NCBI GenBank assembly: GCA_963422645.2 | Contig: CAXXVO010000007.1 | Coordinates: 160,001-224,000 of the forward strand | DNA from: Alphaproteobacteria bacterium | GTDB taxonomy: Bacteria > Pseudomonadota > Alphaproteobacteria > UBA828 | DNA: 64,000 bases | Direction: 5' to 3' | Shown: in pieces, positions 3,274 through 22,045 of the stretch | How the letters are laid out: every line of letters begins with the position of its first letter | Position numbering within the stretch: position 1 is the stretch's first letter | Program-made: the position numbers and the translations under genes | Notes under the pieces: model-generated | What the model was told of the DNA's origin: nothing | Databases searched by the model: none | What the model saw: the letters and a program-made list of their open reading frames with translations, nothing else

Positions 3274-4072
3274 TATCGAAAGCCTGAACAAGTCCTTCGA
3301 CCTGCCGGGTGGCTTCCTGTGGAGACGGCGCATCGCCGTGCTGCGCGACGTGTCCGTGAATATCGCCAGCGGCGAGGTCCTCGGCCTGGTGGGTGAATCA
3401 GGCAGCGGCAAGACGACACTGGCGCGCTGCATCATGGGGCTCGTCCGGCCCGATAGCGGGGCCGTGCGGCTCGACGGCGCTGAGGCTGCGGGTCTCGGCA
3501 GGCGGGCGCTGCGGCAGTGGCGCCGCGACATGGCCGTGGTCTACCAGAATCCCTTCCTCTCGCTGAATCCGACCATGACCGTCCAGGCCATCGTCGCCGA
3601 GCCCATGCTGGCCAGGGAGCGCATCGCCCGAGCCGCCCTGGGCAACAGGATTTCGGGGCTCCTGGGGGACGTTGGCTTGGGCGACTCCTTACCTGCGGCG
3701 CCGGGTCGGCGCGCTCTCCGGCGGGCAGGCGCAACGGGTGGCGATCGCACGCGCAATCGCCACGCGGCCCCGCTGATCATCCTGGACGAGCCGTCCTCTT
3801 CGCTTGACGTCTCGGTGCAGGCCCAGATCCTGAACCTTCTGGTCGACCTGCAGGCGCGCGACGGCTTCTCGTGCCTCTTCATTACCCACGATCTCGACGT
3901 CGTCCGCTTCGCGACCGATAGAGTGGCGGTGATGGAGAAGGGCGCCATCGTCGAGGTCGGTGATACCGAGCGGGTACTGGACGCGCCTCGGCACGCGTAC
4001 ACCGCGAGGCTCATCGCCGCGACCCCGCGCCTGCCGGCCGGGGCTGGCGTGCGCGGACTGCTCGCGCACTGA
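3263..4072 (+). pseudogene. Peptide ABC ATP-binding protein (DppF-type) with two compensating frameshifts
   Basis: Walker A GESGSGKT and LIILDEP are in frame, but the signature LSGGQAQRVAIARA is encoded in another frame between about 3689 and 3772. Confidence 0.75.
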
Positions 4073-4236
4073 ATGGCCCCGCTGTCCGCACCTGCCGAGA
4101 ATCCCTTACACCACCCTACGCACCTGCGGTACTAACTATCTGACAAAGGGTCGATTTTTCTCCTGACAATTGTTGCAGCGGAACGGATGGCGCAACTCCC
4201 GCTTCCCCGGCTGCAACCGCAAACGGGAGAAAGTTC

Positions 4237-11469: not shown

Positions 11470-13239
11470 AAACAGTCATGGTCCCCGCGGTTCTGAGCCA
11501 CCCCGTGGCATGAAACAGGAGCGGTTCGGCTGACGTTTTCCTTGCGCTTGCACCCATTTGCCGTGTCAGGATGGGTATTGGCGGAGGTGGGGACGTGTGA
11601 GCGTCGTTATATCGGTGACGTAGTTCCCGATGACAAAACTGCTTCCGGCGGCCGGCTCCGCACCCCGTATTGTACCCGGCCCGTGGCCGTGGACGCGCGG
11701 CAAATTGCACCGCACCCGCTCGTCGGATGCGTGTTCTTCCGACCGCTGTCCCCGCCTCCACCGTGGCGATGCCACGGCGTGATCGTACGCCGCCGTGGCG
11801 AGAGCGCAAATGAGGAGGAAGGCGATGAAGACGGAAGGCTTGCACGTCGTCCGGCCGCGCGCGGCGGGTCTGGACGTGCACAAGATGGAGATCACCGCGA
11901 CGGTTCGCCTCTGTGAGGGCGAGGGTGAGCCGGTGGTGGAGACGCGCTGCTTCGGCACGCTGCCGAGCGGTCTGGAGGAGATGGTCGCGTGGCTGACCGG
12001 TCACGGCGTCGAGGCTGCGGTGATGGAAGGGACCGGGGTCTACTGGCAGGCGCCCTTCGCGGCCCTGGAGGCGGCCGGGCTCGAGGCGATCCTGGTGCAT
12101 GCGCGTCAGGTGAAGCAGTTGAAGGGGCGCAAGACCGACGTGGCGGACAGCGTGTGGCTGGCCTGCGTGTGCCAGTTCGGGCTCTGCACGCCTTCCCACG
12201 TTCCGCCTGAGCCGTTCCGGGAGCTGCGCGCACTGAGCCGCCAGCGCCGCGTCCTGGTCAGGCAGCGCTCCGCCGTGCGCAACCGCGTGCAGAAGATCAT
12301 CGACCGCGCCGGTGCGCGCATCGGCGGCATCCTCTCCGACGTCTTCGGCGTCAACGGCCGGAAGATCCTCGACGGCCTGGCGCAGGGGACGGCGCGCGAG
12401 GTCATCCTCGCCTCGCTCACCAGCCACGTTGCGAACAAGCTGGAGGGGCTCGGCGAGGCGCTCACCCTGAGCCTGGGCGACAACGACCGCTTCATGCTCA
12501 ACGACCTGCTGGAGGAGCATGACGCGCTTGAGGCGCGCATCGCGTCCTACACCAGGAAGATCGACGGGCAGATGACACCGTGGGAGGAGCAGCTCCGTCT
12601 GCTGACCACCATCCCCGGCATCGACCGCACCGCCGCCTCGACCATCCTCATCGAGATCGGCCCCGACATCGGCGTGTTCGCCTCCAAGGAGCACTTCGCC
12701 GCCTGGGCCGGGCTCTGCCCCGGCAACAACGAGAGCGGGGGCAAGCGCCGCAACGCACGCACCCGCATGGGCTCCAAGACCCTGCGCGCCTGCCTCGTCG
12801 AGTGTGCCCACGGCGCGGCCCGAACCAAGGGGTGCCAGTTCGAGGCTCATCACCGCGCCCTCGCCGCCCGGCGCGGCTACAAGCGCGCCATCGTCGCCGG
12901 CGCTCACAAGATGCTGCGCATCATCTATGTGGTGCTCAAGACCGGCAGGCCCTACTACGACCGCACGGCCGACTACGACGCTCTGATGGTCAAGCGCAAC
13001 GCTCCTCGGTGGATCCGCATGCTCCGCCGCTACGGCTACATCGAGCCCGTAGGCGCGGAACTCAAGGCCGCCTGAGCGGCCCGCATCTCGTCAGCCGGCT
13101 ACGCGGGACCGCTTCGGACCACATCGGGGAAGTCCACCGCTCGTCTCCGCCGCGCCGACCCTGGCGGTCTCAGCCAACGCCGTGACCTCGGGGTTGGAGC
13201 GTCACCGCGCGTCCCTCGCCAGAATCTGTTTCACGGCAA
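11470..13239 (+). mobile_element. IS110-family element, copy 2
   Basis: Same sequence as copy 1 at offset 1768 bp. Confidence 0.9.
11825..13075 (+). CDS. IS110 transposase/bridge recombinase (same translation as copy 1)
   Basis: Translation identical to 10057-11307. Confidence 0.95.
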   Translation: MKTEGLHVVRPRAAGLDVHKMEITATVRLCEGEGEPVVETRCFGTLPSGLEEMVAWLTGHGVEAAVMEGTGVYWQAPFAALEAAGLEAILVHARQVKQLKGRKTDVADSVWLACVCQFGLCTPSHVPPEPFRELRALSRQRRVLVRQRSAVRNRVQKIIDRAGARIGGILSDVFGVNGRKILDGLAQGTAREVILASLTSHVANKLEGLGEALTLSLGDNDRFMLNDLLEEHDALEARIASYTRKIDGQMTPWEEQLRLLTTIPGIDRTAASTILIEIGPDIGVFASKEHFAAWAGLCPGNNESGGKRRNARTRMGSKTLRACLVECAHGAARTKGCQFEAHHRALAARRGYKRAIVAGAHKMLRIIYVVLKTGRPYYDRTADYDALMVKRNAPRWIRMLRRYGYIEPVGAELKAA

Positions 13240-13347
13240 GCATATATGGGCTGAGCCGGCCGCACTCCGGCGGAGCCTGCGAGCGCACACGCCACCCGGC
13301 CCAGCGCCGACCGCGTCCGGCCGGACTGGAACGATGAAGTCTCGCGA

Positions 13348-14412
13348 TCAGGCAAGCTTGGCGCCCGTCGGCACGAGACCGGTTTCAGAGAACCGCCAAA
13401 GTGCGATGAGTAGCTTGCGGGCGAGCGCCACGACCATCACTCGACGAATACGTCCCCGGGCTCCGGCGGTGCGCCCCTCGAACCACTTGCTAAGCGCGCT
13501 GTCGGGTTGATGACGCAACCAGCGCCACGCTATTTGGATGAGGAGGGCACGGATCCAGGCCGGACCGTCGCGGCCGATCCCCTGATCGCGTTGCATTTCC
13601 CCGCTTGCCCACGGGGTCGGCGTCAACCCGACCCAGCTCGCAAGCTCACGGCGGTTGCGGAAGTCGCGGTAGAAGATCTCGTGCTCGAGCAGCCTCGCGT
13701 CGTTCGCGCCGATCCCATTCAGCTGGGTCAACGTCGCGATCTTGGCCGTCACCTTCTCCTGGCTTCCCTCCGGCGCGACCGGCACCGCGATAGCCTCGCC
13801 CTGGCGGACAACTTCATCTCGCTCGGCCTCGACTTCCGCGATCTGCCGCTGCACGAGCGACAGCCTCTCCACAAGCCGAAGGATCTCCTGGCGAGCCCGC
13901 GGCGGGAACGGCGATCCATACGCGGTCACCGCGTCCGCGAACCTCCGCTCGAACCCTTTGGCGCGCGGGTCCAGGTCGAAGACCCCCTGAAGCTTCAGCA
14001 GCCCCTTGATCGAGTTGGTCAGCGAGGTCCGCTCCTTCACCAGGCGCCGGCGCTCGCGAAGCAGTCGCTTGCGATCTTCCTCCTCCACGCTCGGAACCCG
14101 CACCTGGCTCAGCACCGCAGCGTCGCCCCGGTCGTGCGCGAGCAGCGCTCGTACCATCTTCTTCGCGTCAATCCGATCCGTCTTGCGCTGCTTCGCCTTC
14201 CGATTCACCAACAGGCTCGCCGGATCGAGCACCACCGTCTCGATGGACATCTCCCGGTCCAGCCAGCGCTCCAGCCAGAAGCCCTCGTAGCCCGCCTCGT
14301 AACAGCACAGAACGCGCACCTCTCGGCCGAGGGCCCGTTCCGCCTTGGCCCGCTGATGCTCGATCAGCTCTCTGAGGCCTTCGACGTCCGCTGGCTGTTG
14401 ATCGGCGTGCAA
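13348..14412 (-). pseudogene. Second, unrelated IS110-family transposase, 5'-truncated
   Basis: CCYEAGYEGFWL, KTDRIDA, VGLTPTPWASG..RDQGI, VALARKLLIALWR. The first catalytic strand and the start are missing; an IS end lies at 14448. Confidence 0.85.
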
Positions 14413-14447
14413 TTTTGGCCCCGTAGTATCAAGCTACTTCAATAACT

Positions 14448-16890
14448 TCAGACTTCCTGACCTCGTGATGCTGGCTGTTCTGGGCAGCGTGCCGGGAACT
14501 CCTTGAATTCTGATACATTTCGGTTGTTTCAGGCGGTTTTTCGCTGGGTGTCGCGCCCGAGGTCTGATAGTATAATTTGATACCAATTGCACGGTCTCAA
14601 CCATGCCCAGTACCCTCCCAATGTGCCCTCCAGAGGCGGTCTCGATCGGCAACAGCTGCTTCGCCGTCCTGATCTCGGACGACACCTTCACCTACTTTTC
14701 CAACCTCATTCCCTTTGACAGCCACGCCGCCGATGACCGCACGGCCATGCTCTTGCGGATCGGCCGCCTCGCGGCGATCAGCGCGGTCTCGCCGCAGGAA
14801 CTGGCTGACGCTTTCGCTGTCTCGCGCGCGACGGTGCAGCGCGCACGACGGCGCTACCTGGCCGAGGGCGAAGCGGGGTTCATGAAGCCCCGGCGCGGTC
14901 GCGGGCCGTCGGTGTTCACTCCGGAGTTGGCGGAGAAGGCGACGGCGTTGCTGGCATCGGGCCTGAGCGGCTCTGCGGCGGCCCGGGTTCTCGGCGTGTC
15001 AGCGCCATCGGTCAACAAGTGGCGCCGTCAGGGACTGATCGGCAACACGGAGGCGGATGGGGAGCCCGGACGCTCAGCGCTGGCTGCGCCGCCTGACGCG
15101 GGTGCGGCTCCTGAAGGCCGTGTCGATGAAGAGAGTACCGGTGCCCCGGGGCCGGAGACGGCGCCGGGGCTGGAAGCGCAGCCGCAAACGGATCGCAGCG
15201 CGCGCGATCGGCGGGACCGGCAGGCGCCGATGGGGCGTGCGACTTGCGATGTTCCGGCTCGGGTTCTGGCCAGTTGTGGACAGGCGGGGCCGGTCGAACC
15301 GCAGTTCGCCGCCGCCGCCCGCGGTGTCCGCTTCGGCGGCGTGCTCGCCGCCCTGCCGGCCCTGCTGAAGGAAGGTCTTCTCTCCGAGACCGGTCTCCTG
15401 CCATTGCTGCCGAAGGGCTATTACGGCTTGCCTACGATCCTGCTCTTCCTGGCCTTCATGACCTTGGCGCGGGTGCGCAACCCCGAGAGCCTGCGCTACC
15501 AGGCGCCGGGCGAATGGGGCGCCATTCTCGGCCTCGATCGCTGCCCCGAGGTCAAGACGCTGCGCCGCAAGATCGCTCTCATCGCCGACGACGAGGCCGG
15601 CGTGCGGGCGTGGCAGCTCGCCCTTGCCAGGCGCTGGCAGGCGCCGACGAGCCGGAGCTCTGGGCGACGCTGGCCATCGACGGGCACGTCAAGGTCTACT
15701 CCGGCCGCAAGGGGCGCTTGCCCAAGCACTTCGTCTCGCGCGAGAAGCTGTGCCTGCCGGCGAGCGCCAGCTACTGGATCAACGCTCTGGGCGGCAAGCC
15801 GCTGCTCTGTCTGCACAAGCCGCTGGACCCGAAGATGGTCGCGGCCATCGAAGCCGACGTGGTGCCGGCGCTGCAGGAGCTTGGGATCGTTGGCGCCGGG
15901 GCGCCGGACCTGACCGCCGAGCATCCCGGCCAGCCGGCGCTCACCCTGGTCTTCGACCGCGAGGGCTGGAGCCCGGATCTGTTCCGCCGGCTGGCGAGGC
16001 GCGGCGTCGCCTGCCTGACCTGGCACAAGAACTTCAGGGGCGAGGACTGGCCGGCCGAGGACTTCGGCGCGATGACCGTTCCCATTCACGGACCGGCGGC
16101 GGACGGCAGCGCCACCATGCGGCTGGCTGAGAAGCCGGTGACGTTGCCGAACGGCTTCAGGGTGCGCCAGATCCGCCGCCTGCTCGACAACGGCCGTCAG
16201 GTGCCGCTGATCACCACCGATCCGCACAAGCCGATGGCTGAGGTTGCGGGCGCCATGTTCTCGCGCTGGTCGCAGGAGAACTTCTTCAAGTACATGCGTG
16301 ACGAGTTCAATCTCGACGCCCTGCCGACCCACGAGCTCGAGCCTCTCGATCCCGCCGCCATGGTCGTCAACCCGCTGCGGCGGGCCTATGACAAGGCAAT
16401 CCATCGCCTCGACCGCCAGCTTGGCCGCCTGCGCAACCGCATCGCCGACACGGCCCGGAAGAAGCAGCCGACGGCGGAACTCAGGAGGGAAGTCAGGGAC
16501 CTCCAGGATGTCCGCGACATCGTCAGGGCCAGCCGCAGGGAGACGCCCAAGCACTGCCGGGCCGGCGACCTCGACGAAGCCGAGCAGCTCGATGCCTTGC
16601 CCGCGCGCGAGCGCCTCCTCCTCGACGTCATCCGGATGATCGCCTACCGCGCCGAAACCCGCATGATGCTTCCCGTCATGCAGGCGCAGGGCCACAAGCC
16701 CCATCCCCGGAAACTGCTTCAAGCGCTGCTCACCGCCGATGCCGACATCCTGCCGGATCCTGGCAATGGCCTCCTGCGGGTCCACATTCTTGGCCTCGCA
16801 AACGACGCCTGCGACCGTTGGATCGATGCGGTTCTGAGCGACCTGAACGCCACCGAAACGGTCTTCCCCGGCACCCGTCTGCGCATAGTC
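14448..16890 (+). mobile_element. Unclassified DDE IS, outer copy (left IR plus body, interrupted 75 bp before its right end)
   Basis: IRL TCAGACTTCCTGACCTC at 14448. A 2443-bp direct repeat of 16891-19333; one SNP noticed (14570 G vs 17013 T). Confidence 0.9.
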
Positions 16891-16911
16891 TCAGACTTCC
16901 TGACCTCGTGA
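14603..16911 (+). pseudogene. Large HTH + DDE transposase, frameshift at about 15643, C-terminus replaced by read-through into the next IRL
   Basis: Two HTH segments; GVLAALPALL, LGLDRCPEVKTLR; catalytic-like IDGHVKVY, VFDREGWS, RWSQENFFKY. Confidence 0.75.
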
Positions 16912-19405
16912 TGCTGGCTGTTCTGGGCAGCGTGCCGGGAACTCCTTGAATTCTGATACATTTCGGTTGTTTCAGGCGGTTTTTCGCTGGGTGTCGCGCC
17001 CGAGGTCTGATATTATAATTTGATACCAATTGCACGGTCTCAACCATGCCCAGTACCCTCCCAATGTGCCCTCCAGAGGCGGTCTCGATCGGCAACAGCT
17101 GCTTCGCCGTCCTGATCTCGGACGACACCTTCACCTACTTTTCCAACCTCATTCCCTTTGACAGCCACGCCGCCGATGACCGCACGGCCATGCTCTTGCG
17201 GATCGGCCGCCTCGCGGCGATCAGCGCGGTCTCGCCGCAGGAACTGGCTGACGCTTTCGCTGTCTCGCGCGCGACGGTGCAGCGCGCACGACGGCGCTAC
17301 CTGGCCGAGGGCGAAGCGGGGTTCATGAAGCCCCGGCGCGGTCGCGGGCCGTCGGTGTTCACTCCGGAGTTGGCGGAGAAGGCGACGGCGTTGCTGGCAT
17401 CGGGCCTGAGCGGCTCTGCGGCGGCCCGGGTTCTCGGCGTGTCAGCGCCATCGGTCAACAAGTGGCGCCGTCAGGGACTGATCGGCAACACGGAGGCGGA
17501 TGGGGAGCCCGGACGCTCAGCGCTGGCTGCGCCGCCTGACGCGGGTGCGGCTCCTGAAGGCCGTGTCGATGAAGAGAGTACCGGTGCCCCGGGGCCGGAG
17601 ACGGCGCCGGGGCTGGAAGCGCAGCCGCAAACGGATCGCAGCGCGCGCGATCGGCGGGACCGGCAGGCGCCGATGGGGCGTGCGACTTGCGATGTTCCGG
17701 CTCGGGTTCTGGCCAGTTGTGGACAGGCGGGGCCGGTCGAACCGCAGTTCGCCGCCGCCGCCCGCGGTGTCCGCTTCGGCGGCGTGCTCGCCGCCCTGCC
17801 GGCCCTGCTGAAGGAAGGTCTTCTCTCCGAGACCGGTCTCCTGCCATTGCTGCCGAAGGGCTATTACGGCTTGCCTACGATCCTGCTCTTCCTGGCCTTC
17901 ATGACCTTGGCGCGGGTGCGCAACCCCGAGAGCCTGCGCTACCAGGCGCCGGGCGAATGGGGCGCCATTCTCGGCCTCGATCGCTGCCCCGAGGTCAAGA
18001 CGCTGCGCCGCAAGATCGCTCTCATCGCCGACGACGAGGCCGGCGTGCGGGCGTGGCAGCTCGCCCTTGCCAGGCGCTGGCAGGCGCCGACGAGCCGGAG
18101 CTCTGGGCGACGCTGGCCATCGACGGGCACGTCAAGGTCTACTCCGGCCGCAAGGGGCGCTTGCCCAAGCACTTCGTCTCGCGCGAGAAGCTGTGCCTGC
18201 CGGCGAGCGCCAGCTACTGGATCAACGCTCTGGGCGGCAAGCCGCTGCTCTGTCTGCACAAGCCGCTGGACCCGAAGATGGTCGCGGCCATCGAAGCCGA
18301 CGTGGTGCCGGCGCTGCAGGAGCTTGGGATCGTTGGCGCCGGGGCGCCGGACCTGACCGCCGAGCATCCCGGCCAGCCGGCGCTCACCCTGGTCTTCGAC
18401 CGCGAGGGCTGGAGCCCGGATCTGTTCCGCCGGCTGGCGAGGCGCGGCGTCGCCTGCCTGACCTGGCACAAGAACTTCAGGGGCGAGGACTGGCCGGCCG
18501 AGGACTTCGGCGCGATGACCGTTCCCATTCACGGACCGGCGGCGGACGGCAGCGCCACCATGCGGCTGGCTGAGAAGCCGGTGACGTTGCCGAACGGCTT
18601 CAGGGTGCGCCAGATCCGCCGCCTGCTCGACAACGGCCGTCAGGTGCCGCTGATCACCACCGATCCGCACAAGCCGATGGCTGAGGTTGCGGGCGCCATG
18701 TTCTCGCGCTGGTCGCAGGAGAACTTCTTCAAGTACATGCGTGACGAGTTCAATCTCGACGCCCTGCCGACCCACGAGCTCGAGCCTCTCGATCCCGCCG
18801 CCATGGTCGTCAACCCGCTGCGGCGGGCCTATGACAAGGCAATCCATCGCCTCGACCGCCAGCTTGGCCGCCTGCGCAACCGCATCGCCGACACGGCCCG
18901 GAAGAAGCAGCCGACGGCGGAACTCAGGAGGGAAGTCAGGGACCTCCAGGATGTCCGCGACATCGTCAGGGCCAGCCGCAGGGAGACGCCCAAGCACTGC
19001 CGGGCCGGCGACCTCGACGAAGCCGAGCAGCTCGATGCCTTGCCCGCGCGCGAGCGCCTCCTCCTCGACGTCATCCGGATGATCGCCTACCGCGCCGAAA
19101 CCCGCATGATGCTTCCCGTCATGCAGGCGCAGGGCCACAAGCCCCATCCCCGGAAACTGCTTCAAGCGCTGCTCACCGCCGATGCCGACATCCTGCCGGA
19201 TCCTGGCAATGGCCTCCTGCGGGTCCACATTCTTGGCCTCGCAAACGACGCCTGCGACCGTTGGATCGATGCGGTTCTGAGCGACCTGAACGCCACCGAA
19301 ACGGTCTTCCCCGGCACCCGTCTGCGCATAGTCTACGACATCGACGGGGCCTCGGAATCCGCGCGGCTCGTGTCACCTAAAATCAGCAGAGGTCAGGAAG
19401 TCTGA
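16891..19405 (+). mobile_element. Unclassified DDE IS, inner complete copy (2515 bp, perfect 17-bp IRs)
   Basis: IRL 16891-16907 and IRR 19389-19405 (GAGGTCAGGAAGTCTGA). Flanked by duplicated GTC (or AGTCT if the IRs are 16 bp). Confidence 0.92.
17046..19405 (+). pseudogene. Large HTH + DDE transposase with the same frameshift (about 18086); stop codon lies inside IRR
   Basis: Same motifs as the outer copy; ends SPKISRGQEV-TGA. Confidence 0.75.
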
Positions 19406-19555
19406 GTCTACGACATCGACGGGGCCTCGGAATCCGCGCGGCTCGTGTCACCTAAAATCAGCAGAGGTCAGGAAGTCTGAGTCTACGACATCGACGGGGC
19501 CTCGGAATCCGCGCGGCTCGTGTCACCTAAAATCAGCAGAGGTCAGGAAGTCTGA
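19331..19555 (+). repeat. Three exact 75-bp tandem copies of the IS right end
   Basis: Units 19331-19405, 19406-19480 and 19481-19555, each GTCTACGAC...GAGGTCAGGAAGTCTGA. Confidence 0.97.
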
Positions 19556-19612
19556 TATTGTGTGAGGTGAGCTACGCTGATAGAGTGTGCGGGTGGGAAA
19601 CAAAGTGCGAAC
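19555..19612 (+). promoter_or_regulatory. Putative nrdJ promoter with half NrdR box and near-consensus LexA box
   Basis: TTGTGT(19558)-N17-TAGAGT(19581); ATATTGTGT at 19555-19563; AAAC-N7-GAAC at 19598-19612. Confidence 0.4.
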
Positions 19613-19663
19613 ATCAATAGAAATCGCGCCAATGGCCGAACATCCGGAGGCGCTGGACCGGCC

Positions 19664-22045
19664 ATGACAGAGATGCTGCCGATCTCGTCCCGAATCTGGG
19701 ACATGAAGTACCGCTTGAAGGAGGCGGACGGCACGCCCATCGACGGCGCCATCGAGGATAGCTGGCGGCGGGTGGCCCGCGCCTTGGCCTCGGCCGAGGC
19801 GGAACCCGAGCGCTGGGAGCCTGAATTCTATCGCGCGCTGGAGGGGTTCAAGTTCCTGCCCGCCGGCCGCATCCTCGCCGGCGCCGGGGCCGAGCGGCAG
19901 GTCACGCTCTTCAACTGCTTCGTGATGGGGCGGATCGCGGACGACATGACCGCGATTTTCGAGCACCTGAAGGAAGCGGCGCTCACCATGCAGCAGGGCG
20001 GTGGCATCGGCTTCGACTTCTCGACGCTTCGGCCCAAGGGGGCGCCGGTCAAGGGCGTCGGCGCCGATGCCTCGGGGCCGCTGCCCTTCATGGACTGCTG
20101 GGATGCGATGTGCCGCACCATCATGAGCGCGGGCTTTCGCCGCGGCGCCATGATGGGCTGCCTGCGCTGCGACCATCCCGACGTCGAGGCCTTCATCGAG
20201 GCGAAGCGCGACCCCGGCCGGTTGCGCATGTTCAACCTCTCGGTGCTGGTGAGCGATGCGTTCATGCAGGCGGTCAAGGACAACGCTCCGTGGGAGCTGC
20301 GCTTCGAGGGCGTCGTCTACAAGACCGTCTCGGCGCGCGCGCTCTGGGAGCGGATTATCCGCTCGACCTACGCCTACGCCGAGCCCGGCGTGATCTTCAT
20401 CGACCGCATCAACCGGGCCAACAACCTCGCCTATTGCGAGGAGATTTTCGCCACCAATCCCTGCGGCGAGCAGCCCCTGCCACCCTATGGCGCCTGCCTC
20501 CTGGGCTCGATCAACCTGGCGAGCCTGGTGCAGGATCCCTTCGAGCCGGGCGCAGCACTCGACATGGCGGCGCTCGAGGCGCTCACCGCCACCGCCGTCA
20601 GGATGCTCGACAACGCGATCGACTGCTCGCGCTTCCCCATCGCGGCACAGCAGGAGGAAGCGCAGGCGAAGCGGCGCATCGGGCTCGGCGTCACCGGGCT
20701 CGCCGACGCGCTCATCATGTGCCGGGCGCGCTACGGCAGCGACGCGGCGAACGCCCTGATCGAGCAGTGGATGAGCGGCCTGCAGCGGGCGGCATATCTG
20801 GCGTCCGCGCGGCTGGCGGAGGAGAAGGGTGCCTTCCCGCTCTACGTTTCCGCGCGCTATGCCGACAGCCCGACGATCCAGCGCCTCGACGACGACGTGC
20901 AGGCGGCAATCGCCGCCTCGGGGGTTCGCAATGCGCTGCTCACCTCGGTGGCACCGACGGGAACGATTTCGCTGCTGGCGGGGAATGTCTCCTCCGGCAT
21001 CGAGCCCGTGTTCAGCTATTCCTACACGCGCAACGTGCTGATGCCGGATGGCACGCGCCGGGCGGAGTCGGTGGACGACCACGCCTATCTGCTGTTTCGG
21101 CGCCTCAAAGGCGACGCCGCGCAACTGCCGGACTATTTCGTCGACGCCCAGTCGCTCTACCCGGCGGATCACCTCGCCGTCCAGGCGCGGGTCCAGACCT
21201 TCGTCGACAGCTCCATCTCCAAGACCATCAACTGCCCGGAGGAGATGAAATTCGACGACTTCAAGGATGTTTACATGCGGGCCTACGACCTCGGCTGCAA
21301 GGGCTGCACCACCTATCGACCCAACCCGGTGACCGGCGCGGTGCTGGAGAGCGCATCTGGAGCGGAGGAGGGAAGCGACGGCGCACCCTCGGCCGGCGTC
21401 GAGAGTGCCGCTTCGCCGGTCGCGCTGGTCCCCGCGCACCTGCCGGCCGCGCGGCAGAGCGAACTCCCGCTGGAGCCGCCGCCGGCACGGCCCGAGGATG
21501 CCTTCGAGGCCGGCGCGGTCATCCAGATGACCCGCCCGCTGGAGCGGCCGGAGGCCCTGCACGGCAGCACCTACAAGATCCGCTGGCCGGAGAGCGACCA
21601 CGCCATCTACATCACGATCAACGATATCGTGCGCGACGGGCGGCGGCAGCCCTTCGAGATCTTCATCAACTCCAAGAACACCGAGCACTATGCCTGGACA
21701 GTGGCGCTGACGCGGATGATCAGCGCCGTGTTCCGCCGGGGCGGCGACGTGTCCTTCATCGTGGAGGAGCTCAAGGCGGTCTTCGACCCGAGAGGCGGCC
21801 AATGGATGGGCGGCCACTATGTGCCCTCCATCCTCGCCGCAATCGGCGGCGTGATCGAGCAGCACCTGGTGAGCATCGGCGCGCTCGCGCCACCGGAGGC
21901 CGCGCATCTGGAACCACCCGCGGCGGGGGACAGCGACGCGCCGGCGCGGGCGGTGCGATTCTGCGGGCGCTGCGGGCAGCCGGGGCTCCTGCATCGGGAG
22001 GGGTGCGACCTCTGCCCGGCCTGCGGCTATTCCAAGTGCGCGTGA
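19664..22045 (+). CDS. nrdJ: Adenosylcobalamin-dependent class II ribonucleotide reductase
   Basis: TLFNCFV, ATNPCGEQPL, ACLLGSINL, VAPTGTIS, SISKTIN, GCKGCTTYR; C-terminal TSCPD-like domain and CxxC..CxxC Zn ribbon. Confidence 0.95.
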   Translation: MTEMLPISSRIWDMKYRLKEADGTPIDGAIEDSWRRVARALASAEAEPERWEPEFYRALEGFKFLPAGRILAGAGAERQVTLFNCFVMGRIADDMTAIFEHLKEAALTMQQGGGIGFDFSTLRPKGAPVKGVGADASGPLPFMDCWDAMCRTIMSAGFRRGAMMGCLRCDHPDVEAFIEAKRDPGRLRMFNLSVLVSDAFMQAVKDNAPWELRFEGVVYKTVSARALWERIIRSTYAYAEPGVIFIDRINRANNLAYCEEIFATNPCGEQPLPPYGACLLGSINLASLVQDPFEPGAALDMAALEALTATAVRMLDNAIDCSRFPIAAQQEEAQAKRRIGLGVTGLADALIMCRARYGSDAANALIEQWMSGLQRAAYLASARLAEEKGAFPLYVSARYADSPTIQRLDDDVQAAIAASGVRNALLTSVAPTGTISLLAGNVSSGIEPVFSYSYTRNVLMPDGTRRAESVDDHAYLLFRRLKGDAAQLPDYFVDAQSLYPADHLAVQARVQTFVDSSISKTINCPEEMKFDDFKDVYMRAYDLGCKGCTTYRPNPVTGAVLESASGAEEGSDGAPSAGVESAASPVALVPAHLPAARQSELPLEPPPARPEDAFEAGAVIQMTRPLERPEALHGSTYKIRWPESDHAIYITINDIVRDGRRQPFEIFINSKNTEHYAWTVALTRMISAVFRRGGDVSFIVEELKAVFDPRGGQWMGGHYVPSILAAIGGVIEQHLVSIGALAPPEAAHLEPPAAGDSDAPARAVRFCGRCGQPGLLHREGCDLCPACGYSKCA

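Follow-up and report, generated by a model that had tools for sequence, protein, structure and literature searches.

The 64,000-nt window analysed here, taken from contig CAXXVO010000007.1 of an Alphaproteobacteria genome (assembly GCA_963422645.2), carries between positions 14448 and 19555 a nest of a large insertion sequence (IS), whose head-to-tail order is a left inverted repeat (IR) with a 2443-nt body (14448-16890), a complete 2515-nt copy (16891-19405), and two further exact 75-nt right ends that extend to 19555. This layout, given in a preliminary description of the window, was recovered by direct reading, repeat finding, Tandem Repeats Finder and base comparison, give or take one base of register: the limits just given follow the 17-nt register of that description, and the 16-bp IR register used below is shifted from it by one base. 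The inner copy occupies the single perfect target word that the element contains, and, in agreement with the earlier suggestion that the same base was used repeatedly, we found this base occupied at 11 loci genome-wide. What is particular here is the combination of a strict target word for an uncharacterised transposase family with a single perfect internal site that takes every self-insertion and yields arrays of ends.

Layout and junctions of the nest

Repeat finding returned a direct repeat of 14448-14747 with 16891-17190 at a spacing of 2443, a 76-nt repeat with three copies starting at 19330, 19405 and 19480, and 17-nt IR arms at 14448-14464 and 16891-16907 that pair with those at 19389-19405, 19464-19480 and 19539-19555. 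Tandem Repeats Finder reported 19330-19555 as 3.0 copies of period 75 with 100% matches. Compared base by base, the two 2443-nt bodies differ by one mismatch (G at 14570, T at 17013), and the three 75-nt units are identical to each other. Five matches to the 17-mer end are present in the window; shuffled sequence has a mean of 0.02, and none of 100 shuffles reached 5.

All features of the nest lie on the + strand. The left part of the outer copy (14449-16891) runs from its 16-bp left IR CAGACTTCCTGACCTC (14449-14464) to the internal target AGTCT (16887-16891), carries the G haplotype at 14570, and lacks the last 70 bp of the element. The inner copy (16892-19404) is full length, measuring 2513 bp with 16-bp IRs, or 2515 in the 17-nt numbering (16891-19405), and has the T haplotype at 17013. 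The left self-junction reads CATAGTCT/CAGAC at 16891/16892, and the right self-junction GTCTG/AGTCTACG is found twice, at 19404/19405 and 19479/19480. The insertion point lies toward the 3′ end of the transposase frame of the outer copy, in the codons R-I-V-Y and with 23 codons left to the stop, and is bounded by a clean 5-bp duplication, AGTCT, whose left copy (16887-16891) lies within the perfect palindromic target TAGTCTA and whose right copy occupies 19405-19409; the junctions thus bear out the described insertion of one copy into the transposase gene of another. Among the three 75-bp units, the first (19330-19404) belongs to the inner copy as its right end and extends from the internal target AGTCT to the right IR, the second (19405-19479) consists of the right AGTCT duplication copy and the last 70 bp of an outer copy, and the third (19480-19554) is an identical extra right end that shows the junction GTCTG/AGTCT again. 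The innermost copy retains an intact target, as had been noted. The pentamer AACTT (14444-14448) adjoins the outer left end and ATATT (19555-19559) follows the last right end; both fit A-N3-T but they are unequal, so that the outer left end and the last right end do not represent an undisturbed single insertion.

The junctions had been read as either a 5-bp duplication with 16-bp IRs or a 3-bp duplication with 17-bp IRs. Only the former stands: relatives of the element duplicate TGGTT, GACTT, CATTT and CAATG, which rules out the 3-bp alternative and sets the ends at CAGAC...GTCTG. Microhomology slippage was rejected as the source of the 75-bp unit, for the AGTCT words (19330, 19399) are 69 nt apart and the junction retains the whole repeat; slippage between them would yield a 69-nt unit, as the preliminary description argued, and none was seen. 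Cleavage at a pseudo-end formed by the internal GTCT was likewise discarded, since the left break falls after AGTCT and the right break before it, which is a staggered target cut.

Directly to the left of the nest are two transposase genes of the IS110 family (DEDD; 11795-13075, + strand, and 13348-14412, - strand), and a B12-type ribonucleotide reductase gene (19664-22045) begins about 105 bp downstream of the last right end. An Rfam scan of window positions 13000-20500 gave no matches. In one public run (X1, from 2015), a 1369-letter contig of unique depth aligns from 19555 to beyond 19800 and continues leftward for at least 516 letters that disagree with the IS, so that in this sample the site may be empty of the IS or otherwise arranged to the left of ATATT.

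The transposase and its family

The element contains one gene, for a 786-amino-acid transposase with an N-terminal helix-turn-helix (HTH) and a catalytic part that belongs to Pfam PF21804 ("Transposase_29"). An intact copy of the gene, present elsewhere in the window genome (one example is at C13:120746-123261), matches PF21804 over profile positions 10-560 of 562 (E 1.1e-99, 334.7 bits, gathering score 27). In both window copies a frame break midway through the Pfam domain divides the gene in two, the parts covering profile positions 10-133 and 136-560. The inner gene (17046-19405, + strand), which encodes the HTH and the PF21804 part, has a -1 frame change near 18083-18086, and its stop TGA (19403-19405) combines the final two bases of the IS with the A of the target duplication. 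The outer gene (14603-16911, + strand) runs from 14603 to about 15642 and then in the -1 frame to 16911; its 3′ end is interrupted by the inner copy, the frame ending ...RLRIVSDFLTS within the inner left repeat. The 75-bp unit is exactly 25 codons long. At an element locus of another species of the same genus (G011; locus L049, approximately 3991-4082), the first of two ends reads TGG, and the frame would continue through the extra unit, repeating the 25-amino-acid tail.

The frame changes fall in a hot spot of the form CAGGCGCTGGCA(A)GG(CG)CCGACGAGC (18070-18094, + strand; outer-copy equivalent 15627-15651), which has its 25-nt out-of-frame form in the window. Genome-wide, the hot spot has four main lengths, with 7 copies of 26 nt (intact frame), 44 of 25 nt, 33 of 24 nt and 9 of 23 nt (in frame minus one codon), and a frame of 785 or 786 amino acids is present in only 10 of 67 full copies. 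The form shorter by 2 bp (at 18084) also appears, at about half depth, in k-mer contigs of two other runs and is therefore not an assembly error. The lost CG lies in GGCGCC, a known context of -2 slippage.

The classification called for by the preliminary description succeeded at the level of Pfam, where PF21804 could be assigned, and not at that of an NCBIfam IS-family model for the catalytic part, for which no family matched at E up to 0.01. D360, D452 and E559 are invariant across 16 homologues, and none of the Pfam DDE families matched even at E up to 10. A sequence profile search of solved structures returned no transposase, only chance-level matches to HTH and coiled-coil proteins. Both the catalytic chemistry of the element and its mobilisation in trans, discussed below, we infer from sequence. 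Membership in IS630 or IS481 was rejected because the whole-protein equivalog models were unmatched and only the N-terminal HTH scored, below cut-off in both cases (39.5 bits against 100 for IS630, 25.4 against 224 for IS481). The IS4-related families (IS4, IS701, ISH3, IS1634) are marked, downstream of their third acidic residue, by the signature Y-(2)-R-(3)-E-(6)-K; here M552..R555-x3-E559-x6-R566 shows partial likeness only, and with no match to an NCBIfam family model this assignment too was dropped. The PF21804 family is large: of 8000 scored candidates, at least 1717 proteins belong to it at E up to 0.001. None of the source databases names the protein or its scored relatives, a tblastn search of a plasmid collection gave no match to the protein, and a limited literature search, at the level of titles and abstracts, returned no paper on the Transposase_29/PF21804 family or its target.

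Target word and recurrent self-insertion

In the window genome (G000; 23 contigs, 5.9 Mb), BLAST located the element in 202 segments that together cover 262,876 bases; 67 are full length, and 196 reach 97% identity or more. In three public runs, the k-mer depth of the IS was 780, 5000 and 330, against 8, 62 and 7.8 for unique flank, supporting a high copy number independently of the assembly. Identical 5-bp duplications flank 34 of the 67 full copies, the other 33 being without matching duplications, and many flanks recur with different partners among the full copies. The unmatched duplications and recurring flanks imply either widespread recombination between copies or several co-assembled haplotypes; the marker duplication of this genome is 8.5%.

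Throughout the window genome, A-N3-T precedes all 120 left ends and follows all 116 right ends. Unique flanks give the palindromic consensus (a)T-A-R-N-Y-T-A(t), and the 171 non-self unique half sites mostly carry T at -6, R at -4 and Y at -2. The cut pattern of the element is a 5-bp stagger at A-N3-T, best within T-A-R-N-Y-T-A. We compared these ends with 80 related loci (42-85% protein identity) in metagenome-assembled genomes of Alphaproteobacteria, Spirochaetia, Bryobacterales, Thermodesulfobacteriota, Verrucomicrobiae and Arenicellales, which have in common a 16-bp IR, CAGACNTCCTGAC; their 79 end pairs reduce to 57 unique sites with a matching 5-bp duplication, bounded by A...T in 53. From these loci we drew our own definition of the family's ends, namely the 16-bp IR CAGACNTCCTGAC.. 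with a 5-bp duplication that is mostly A-N3-T, and the window element has both the shared IR ends and the 5-bp duplication.

The word TA[AG]N[CT]TA occurs once in the 2515-nt element (position 2439, TAGTCTA, 75 bp from the right end, spanned by the 13-bp word GCATAGTCTACGA) and 233 times in the rest of the window genome. Internal self sites number 101 intact and 11 occupied, so that the element's own sites constitute about a third of all perfect sites in the genome. The codons at the self site belong to a conserved motif, which reads CGC ATG GTC TAC (CGCATGGTCTAC) in the close relatives L061, L067 and, from G011, L049 and L051, and in a diverged subfamily of the window genome; L050 reads ATG CTC. 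By parsimony, the A that completes A-N3-T would most simply be a derived G-to-A change in the expanded lineage.

The left self-junction GCGCATAGTCT/CAGAC occurs 9 times in direct and twice in inverted form, and the right self-junction GTCTG/AGTCTACGAC 8 times in direct and once in inverted form; in total there are 11 self-insertion loci, 9 direct and 2 inverted. Segment maps show that the outer and inner copies usually differ at three polymorphic markers. Four nests have as their inner copy a 1-kb deletion derivative in which 1-832 is joined to 2320-2515, and in four nests the outer duplications are intact (AGGTT on contig C3, AAGCT on C16, ATTCT in an inverted nest on C5, and AACCT on C9). 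Because haplotypes differ, inner copies include deletion derivatives, and outer duplications persist, the recurrence represents real transposition and not copying error. The genome and homologue searches proposed in the preliminary description thus did find recurrent junctions and end arrays, at the 11 loci and, as one extra end, in G011. Our junction scan of 400 other genomes of the class, a sample that did not include G011, found none with a match, compared to 14 matches in the window genome, and a scan of metagenome contigs yielded two stretches, both chance matches inside an unrelated gene.

The number of extra 75-bp units following a nest ranges from none (C15, C16:8257 and C18) through one (C3, C5, C16:128771 and C22) to two, which is seen only in the window. 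Two composites, on C15 and at C16:8257, consist of an outer left part and an inner copy with matching duplications (AAGAT and AGTAT) and no 75-bp tail, and C22 carries one body with one extra end. At C9:125976-126128 (L032 501-653), two solo 75-bp units sit in a known target whose empty site reads ..gactgtat AGGTT ctctcg..; the whole body and the left AGGTT are absent, and the left junction falls in the 4-nt ATAG common to both target sites. Several other solo right ends, of 73-79 bp, adjoin other IS. Candidate self-insertions near the left end were discarded after their breaks, at 99-135, proved to adjoin other IS families.

Other variants accompany these nests. The deletion derivative (approximately 1028 bp, with a 3-nt overlap at its join) is found at about 8 places, for example C8:517864-518888, C8:778610-779634 and C5:623696-624720. 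At least two such derivatives lacking the transposase have their own matching 5-bp duplications, which suggests that such copies are moved in trans. Three head-to-tail pairs with the order right end, 5 bp (A-N3-T), left end occur at C7:70974-76002, C8:319387-324294 and C8:358773-362315, with junctions at C7 73486/73490, C8 321776/321780 and C8 359797/359801; re-use of a flanking A-N3-T fits these pairs as well as dimer formation does. At least three other IS families, with ends TGTCAATCGG.., TGTTGTTAAGCG.. and ACCGCTTATGCACATGG.., interrupt the element (e.g., C8:682531, C9:505711 and C8:318335/319387), in the AT-rich stretch at 99-135 and beside the CATAG word at the self site. The related element L100 has, in its own genome (G064), derivatives that resemble miniature inverted-repeat transposable elements (MITEs) and consist of the first ~267 bp and the last ~80-87 bp (C2:2192882-2193220 and C2:1651436-1651770 of that genome).

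Motif, position and origin of the nests

The recurrence of self-insertion is, in our judgement, probably driven by the sequence motif and not by distance from the end, making it a case of ordinary sequence-specific target choice. The preliminary description had invoked either a fixed position relative to the element's own end or a sequence motif. The motif is upheld by the presence of A-N3-T at every end and by the one perfect site in the element, while a fixed position is contradicted by about 50 right ends listed for related elements in four other genomes, which read ATG at the site and show no break at -75, versus 11 of 112 self sites in the window genome (Fisher p = 0.019). Two distant relatives, moreover, have partial duplications at different A-N3-T sites of their own: in L118 the nest lies about 590 bp in from the left end, at AGCCT (the left part 98% identical to the inner copy, outer duplication AAACT), and L126 contains a 236-bp left-end tandem at ATTTT. 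Other IS families also strike the AT-rich word at the self site.

Several observations weigh on the other side, and most of them would be expected if targeting were directed by the end, that is, if transposase bound at a resident right end, or local DNA shape, guided the incoming element 75 bp inside and the word only added to this. The single 90%-identical element of G011 has ATG at the site and yet bears one extra 75-bp end, with junction GTCTG/GGTCTATGAC, so that the duplicated word would be GGTCT; this site ranks only 17th to 60th in its element by weight matrix, G...T duplications make up 2 of 57 family-wide, and an extra end at this very base is more than the motif by itself accounts for. 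The self site is also used 4 to 12 times more often than other perfect sites, with 11 of 112 occupied against 2 occupied (of 30 reconstructable sites) beside 233 empty (Fisher p = 0.0001, and still p = 0.006 with the non-self count scaled to 6). In addition, the matrix scores AATTT at position 127 above the self site and 0 copies are found there, and direct nests outnumber inverted ones 9 to 2 despite the palindromic target (binomial p = 0.065). Against end-directed targeting itself stand the unbroken related right ends and the relatives nested at other sites, a left end that has no matching hot spot (its breaks at 114-133 are other IS families), and the attraction of the word to other IS families, which indicates that the word itself draws insertions. 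The occupancy excess and the orientation bias have simple selective explanations: selection against insertions into host DNA can explain the former, and instability of long inverted repeats could explain the latter. The crudeness of the weight matrix can account for the unused AATTT site, which leaves the one G011 locus on which end-directed targeting rests, and we regard such targeting as unlikely. We think no better of a landing pad, in which bound transposase or the shape of the conserved ...CGCAT(A/G)GTCTAYGAC would position the transpososome 75 bp (25 codons) inside the right end as a positive counterpart of target immunity. Two further cautions apply to motif-driven recurrence: pieces are common to certain of the 11 loci (C5:279600 with C9:629000, and the window with C16:34500), so that not all of them may be independent, and we estimate at least 8 separate self-insertion events; and the unit and body counts in the window rest on the assembly, short k-mer contigs being unable to count them.

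Two simpler accounts of the window were also weighed. The nest could stem from a single nesting event, with the third unit and the mismatched flanks produced by homologous recombination and replication slippage among the roughly 100 copies. The three units are indeed identical and adjacent, unit number varies after other nests, exchange appears common given the 33 of 67 full copies without matching duplications, and the window's own flanks are unequal; even so, a single event cannot explain 11 separate loci that share one junction and have different flanks and haplotypes, and as an account of the whole pattern we find it quite improbable. As far as the window goes, it is compatible with motif-driven insertion and differs only in the history of one unit. 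An assembly artefact, in which a repeat was mis-joined or over-expanded and the true locus holds a single copy, draws some support from the 8.5% marker duplication, the repeated flanks, the difficulty of counting units in the runs, and the X1 contig that departs from the IS left of 19555. It is nevertheless a very unlikely source of the nest: the bodies differ by a single-nucleotide polymorphism that segregates among other copies, the junction has a textbook duplication and recurs at 11 loci, four of them with intact outer duplications, an extra end is present in the assembly of a different species (G011), and 67 full copies are resolved within contigs, implying long reads.

If motif-driven insertion is accepted, the history of the nests may be reconstructed as follows. 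A conserved Met codon that reads ATA in the expanded lineage (CATGGTCTAC to CATAGTCTAC) would have supplied the element with its only perfect target, 75 bp from the right end. Once about 100 copies were present, their internal sites would approach a third of all perfect sites, and since insertions there would spare host genes, nests could accumulate at one base. Exchange between the two 2.44-kb direct repeats of a nest would leave one body with an extra 75-bp end, tail-less composites may have arisen by loss of one 75-bp unit or by transposition of the outer left end and inner copy as one unit, and slippage or a new insertion could alter the number of units. The window itself could have formed by collapse of a nest to one body with two ends and re-insertion at the first target, which was still intact; alternatively, slippage or unequal exchange between neighbouring 75-bp repeats could have added a unit to a simple nest. 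Since the junctions come out the same by either route, the third unit is no proof of a second insertion at this locus; the earlier conclusion that the third right end signals two insertions does not follow, for slippage or unequal exchange also turns two units into three. The mismatched outer flanks require at least one exchange with another copy, and the right flank of the window may once have been paired with a left end at C16 38451, which is flanked by ATATT and also heads a nest. Direct observation covers the target rule, the one perfect site inside the element, and the self-junctions that recur with duplications; the order of events at the window locus is a reconstruction.

The preliminary description had gone on to propose the opposite of target immunity and a self-made safe site, which goes beyond the data. 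We observed 11 insertions 75 bp inside resident right ends and 3 directly abutting resident ends; what the element shows is no more than a lack of immunity, and purging is least likely to remove the insertions that fall in IS copies. Target immunity is generally absent from IS elements, which nest in one another and whose nests recombine and give rise to variants; Tn3, Tn7 and Mu are named as transposons that have immunity (PMC12065110). Immunity and the present case both bear on how a resident end affects the landing of a new copy, but the outcome is opposite, in that resident copies are struck, and we have no evidence of active signalling from the resident end. The nesting of IS1 in laboratory evolution is similar in having copies within copies, homology brought together and sub-parts of nests that can move as units; in that study, however, nesting occurs at the random expectation and without a fixed site (PMC12065110), whereas one position takes all 11 self-insertions here. 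IS1202-family elements at dif sites are DDE-type elements that likewise duplicate a short, partly palindromic target word on insertion (PMC10132070), and the window element differs from them in its word (A-N3-T in TARNYTA, with a 5-bp duplication) and in its transposase family, PF21804.

Other elements offer further comparisons. IS5 targets YTAR and IS630 targets TA. IS30-type elements target their own inverted repeats and (IS)2 dimers, and so resemble the window element in being attracted to their own sequence; three right-end/5-bp/left-end pairs are also present in the window genome. The hot spot here, however, lies 75 bp inside the end and is explained by a general target word, with no shown affinity for the repeat. 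In plants, MITEs self-nest at TA or TAA targets and form multimers, which is a comparable case of elements rich in their own target word nesting, but these are eukaryotic and have many sites per element rather than a single fixed base.

IS nesting and sequence-specific IS targets are thus already known, and what the present locus adds is that, for a widespread transposase family, the ends, the length of the duplication and the target word are cleanly defined from DNA alone. It also shows how an element can become its own hot spot through one base change in its transposase gene, which yields partial end duplications, composite units and deletion derivatives, a variant-generating route flagged as worth investigating in the IS1 evolution study (PMC12065110). 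Such nests, and the 75-bp end arrays with them, are pitfalls when IS-rich, symbiont-type genomes are assembled and annotated. Were the landing pad real, it would constitute a new principle of target choice, and would explain both the extra end that G011 acquired without the A and the several-fold heavier use of the self site than of other perfect sites.

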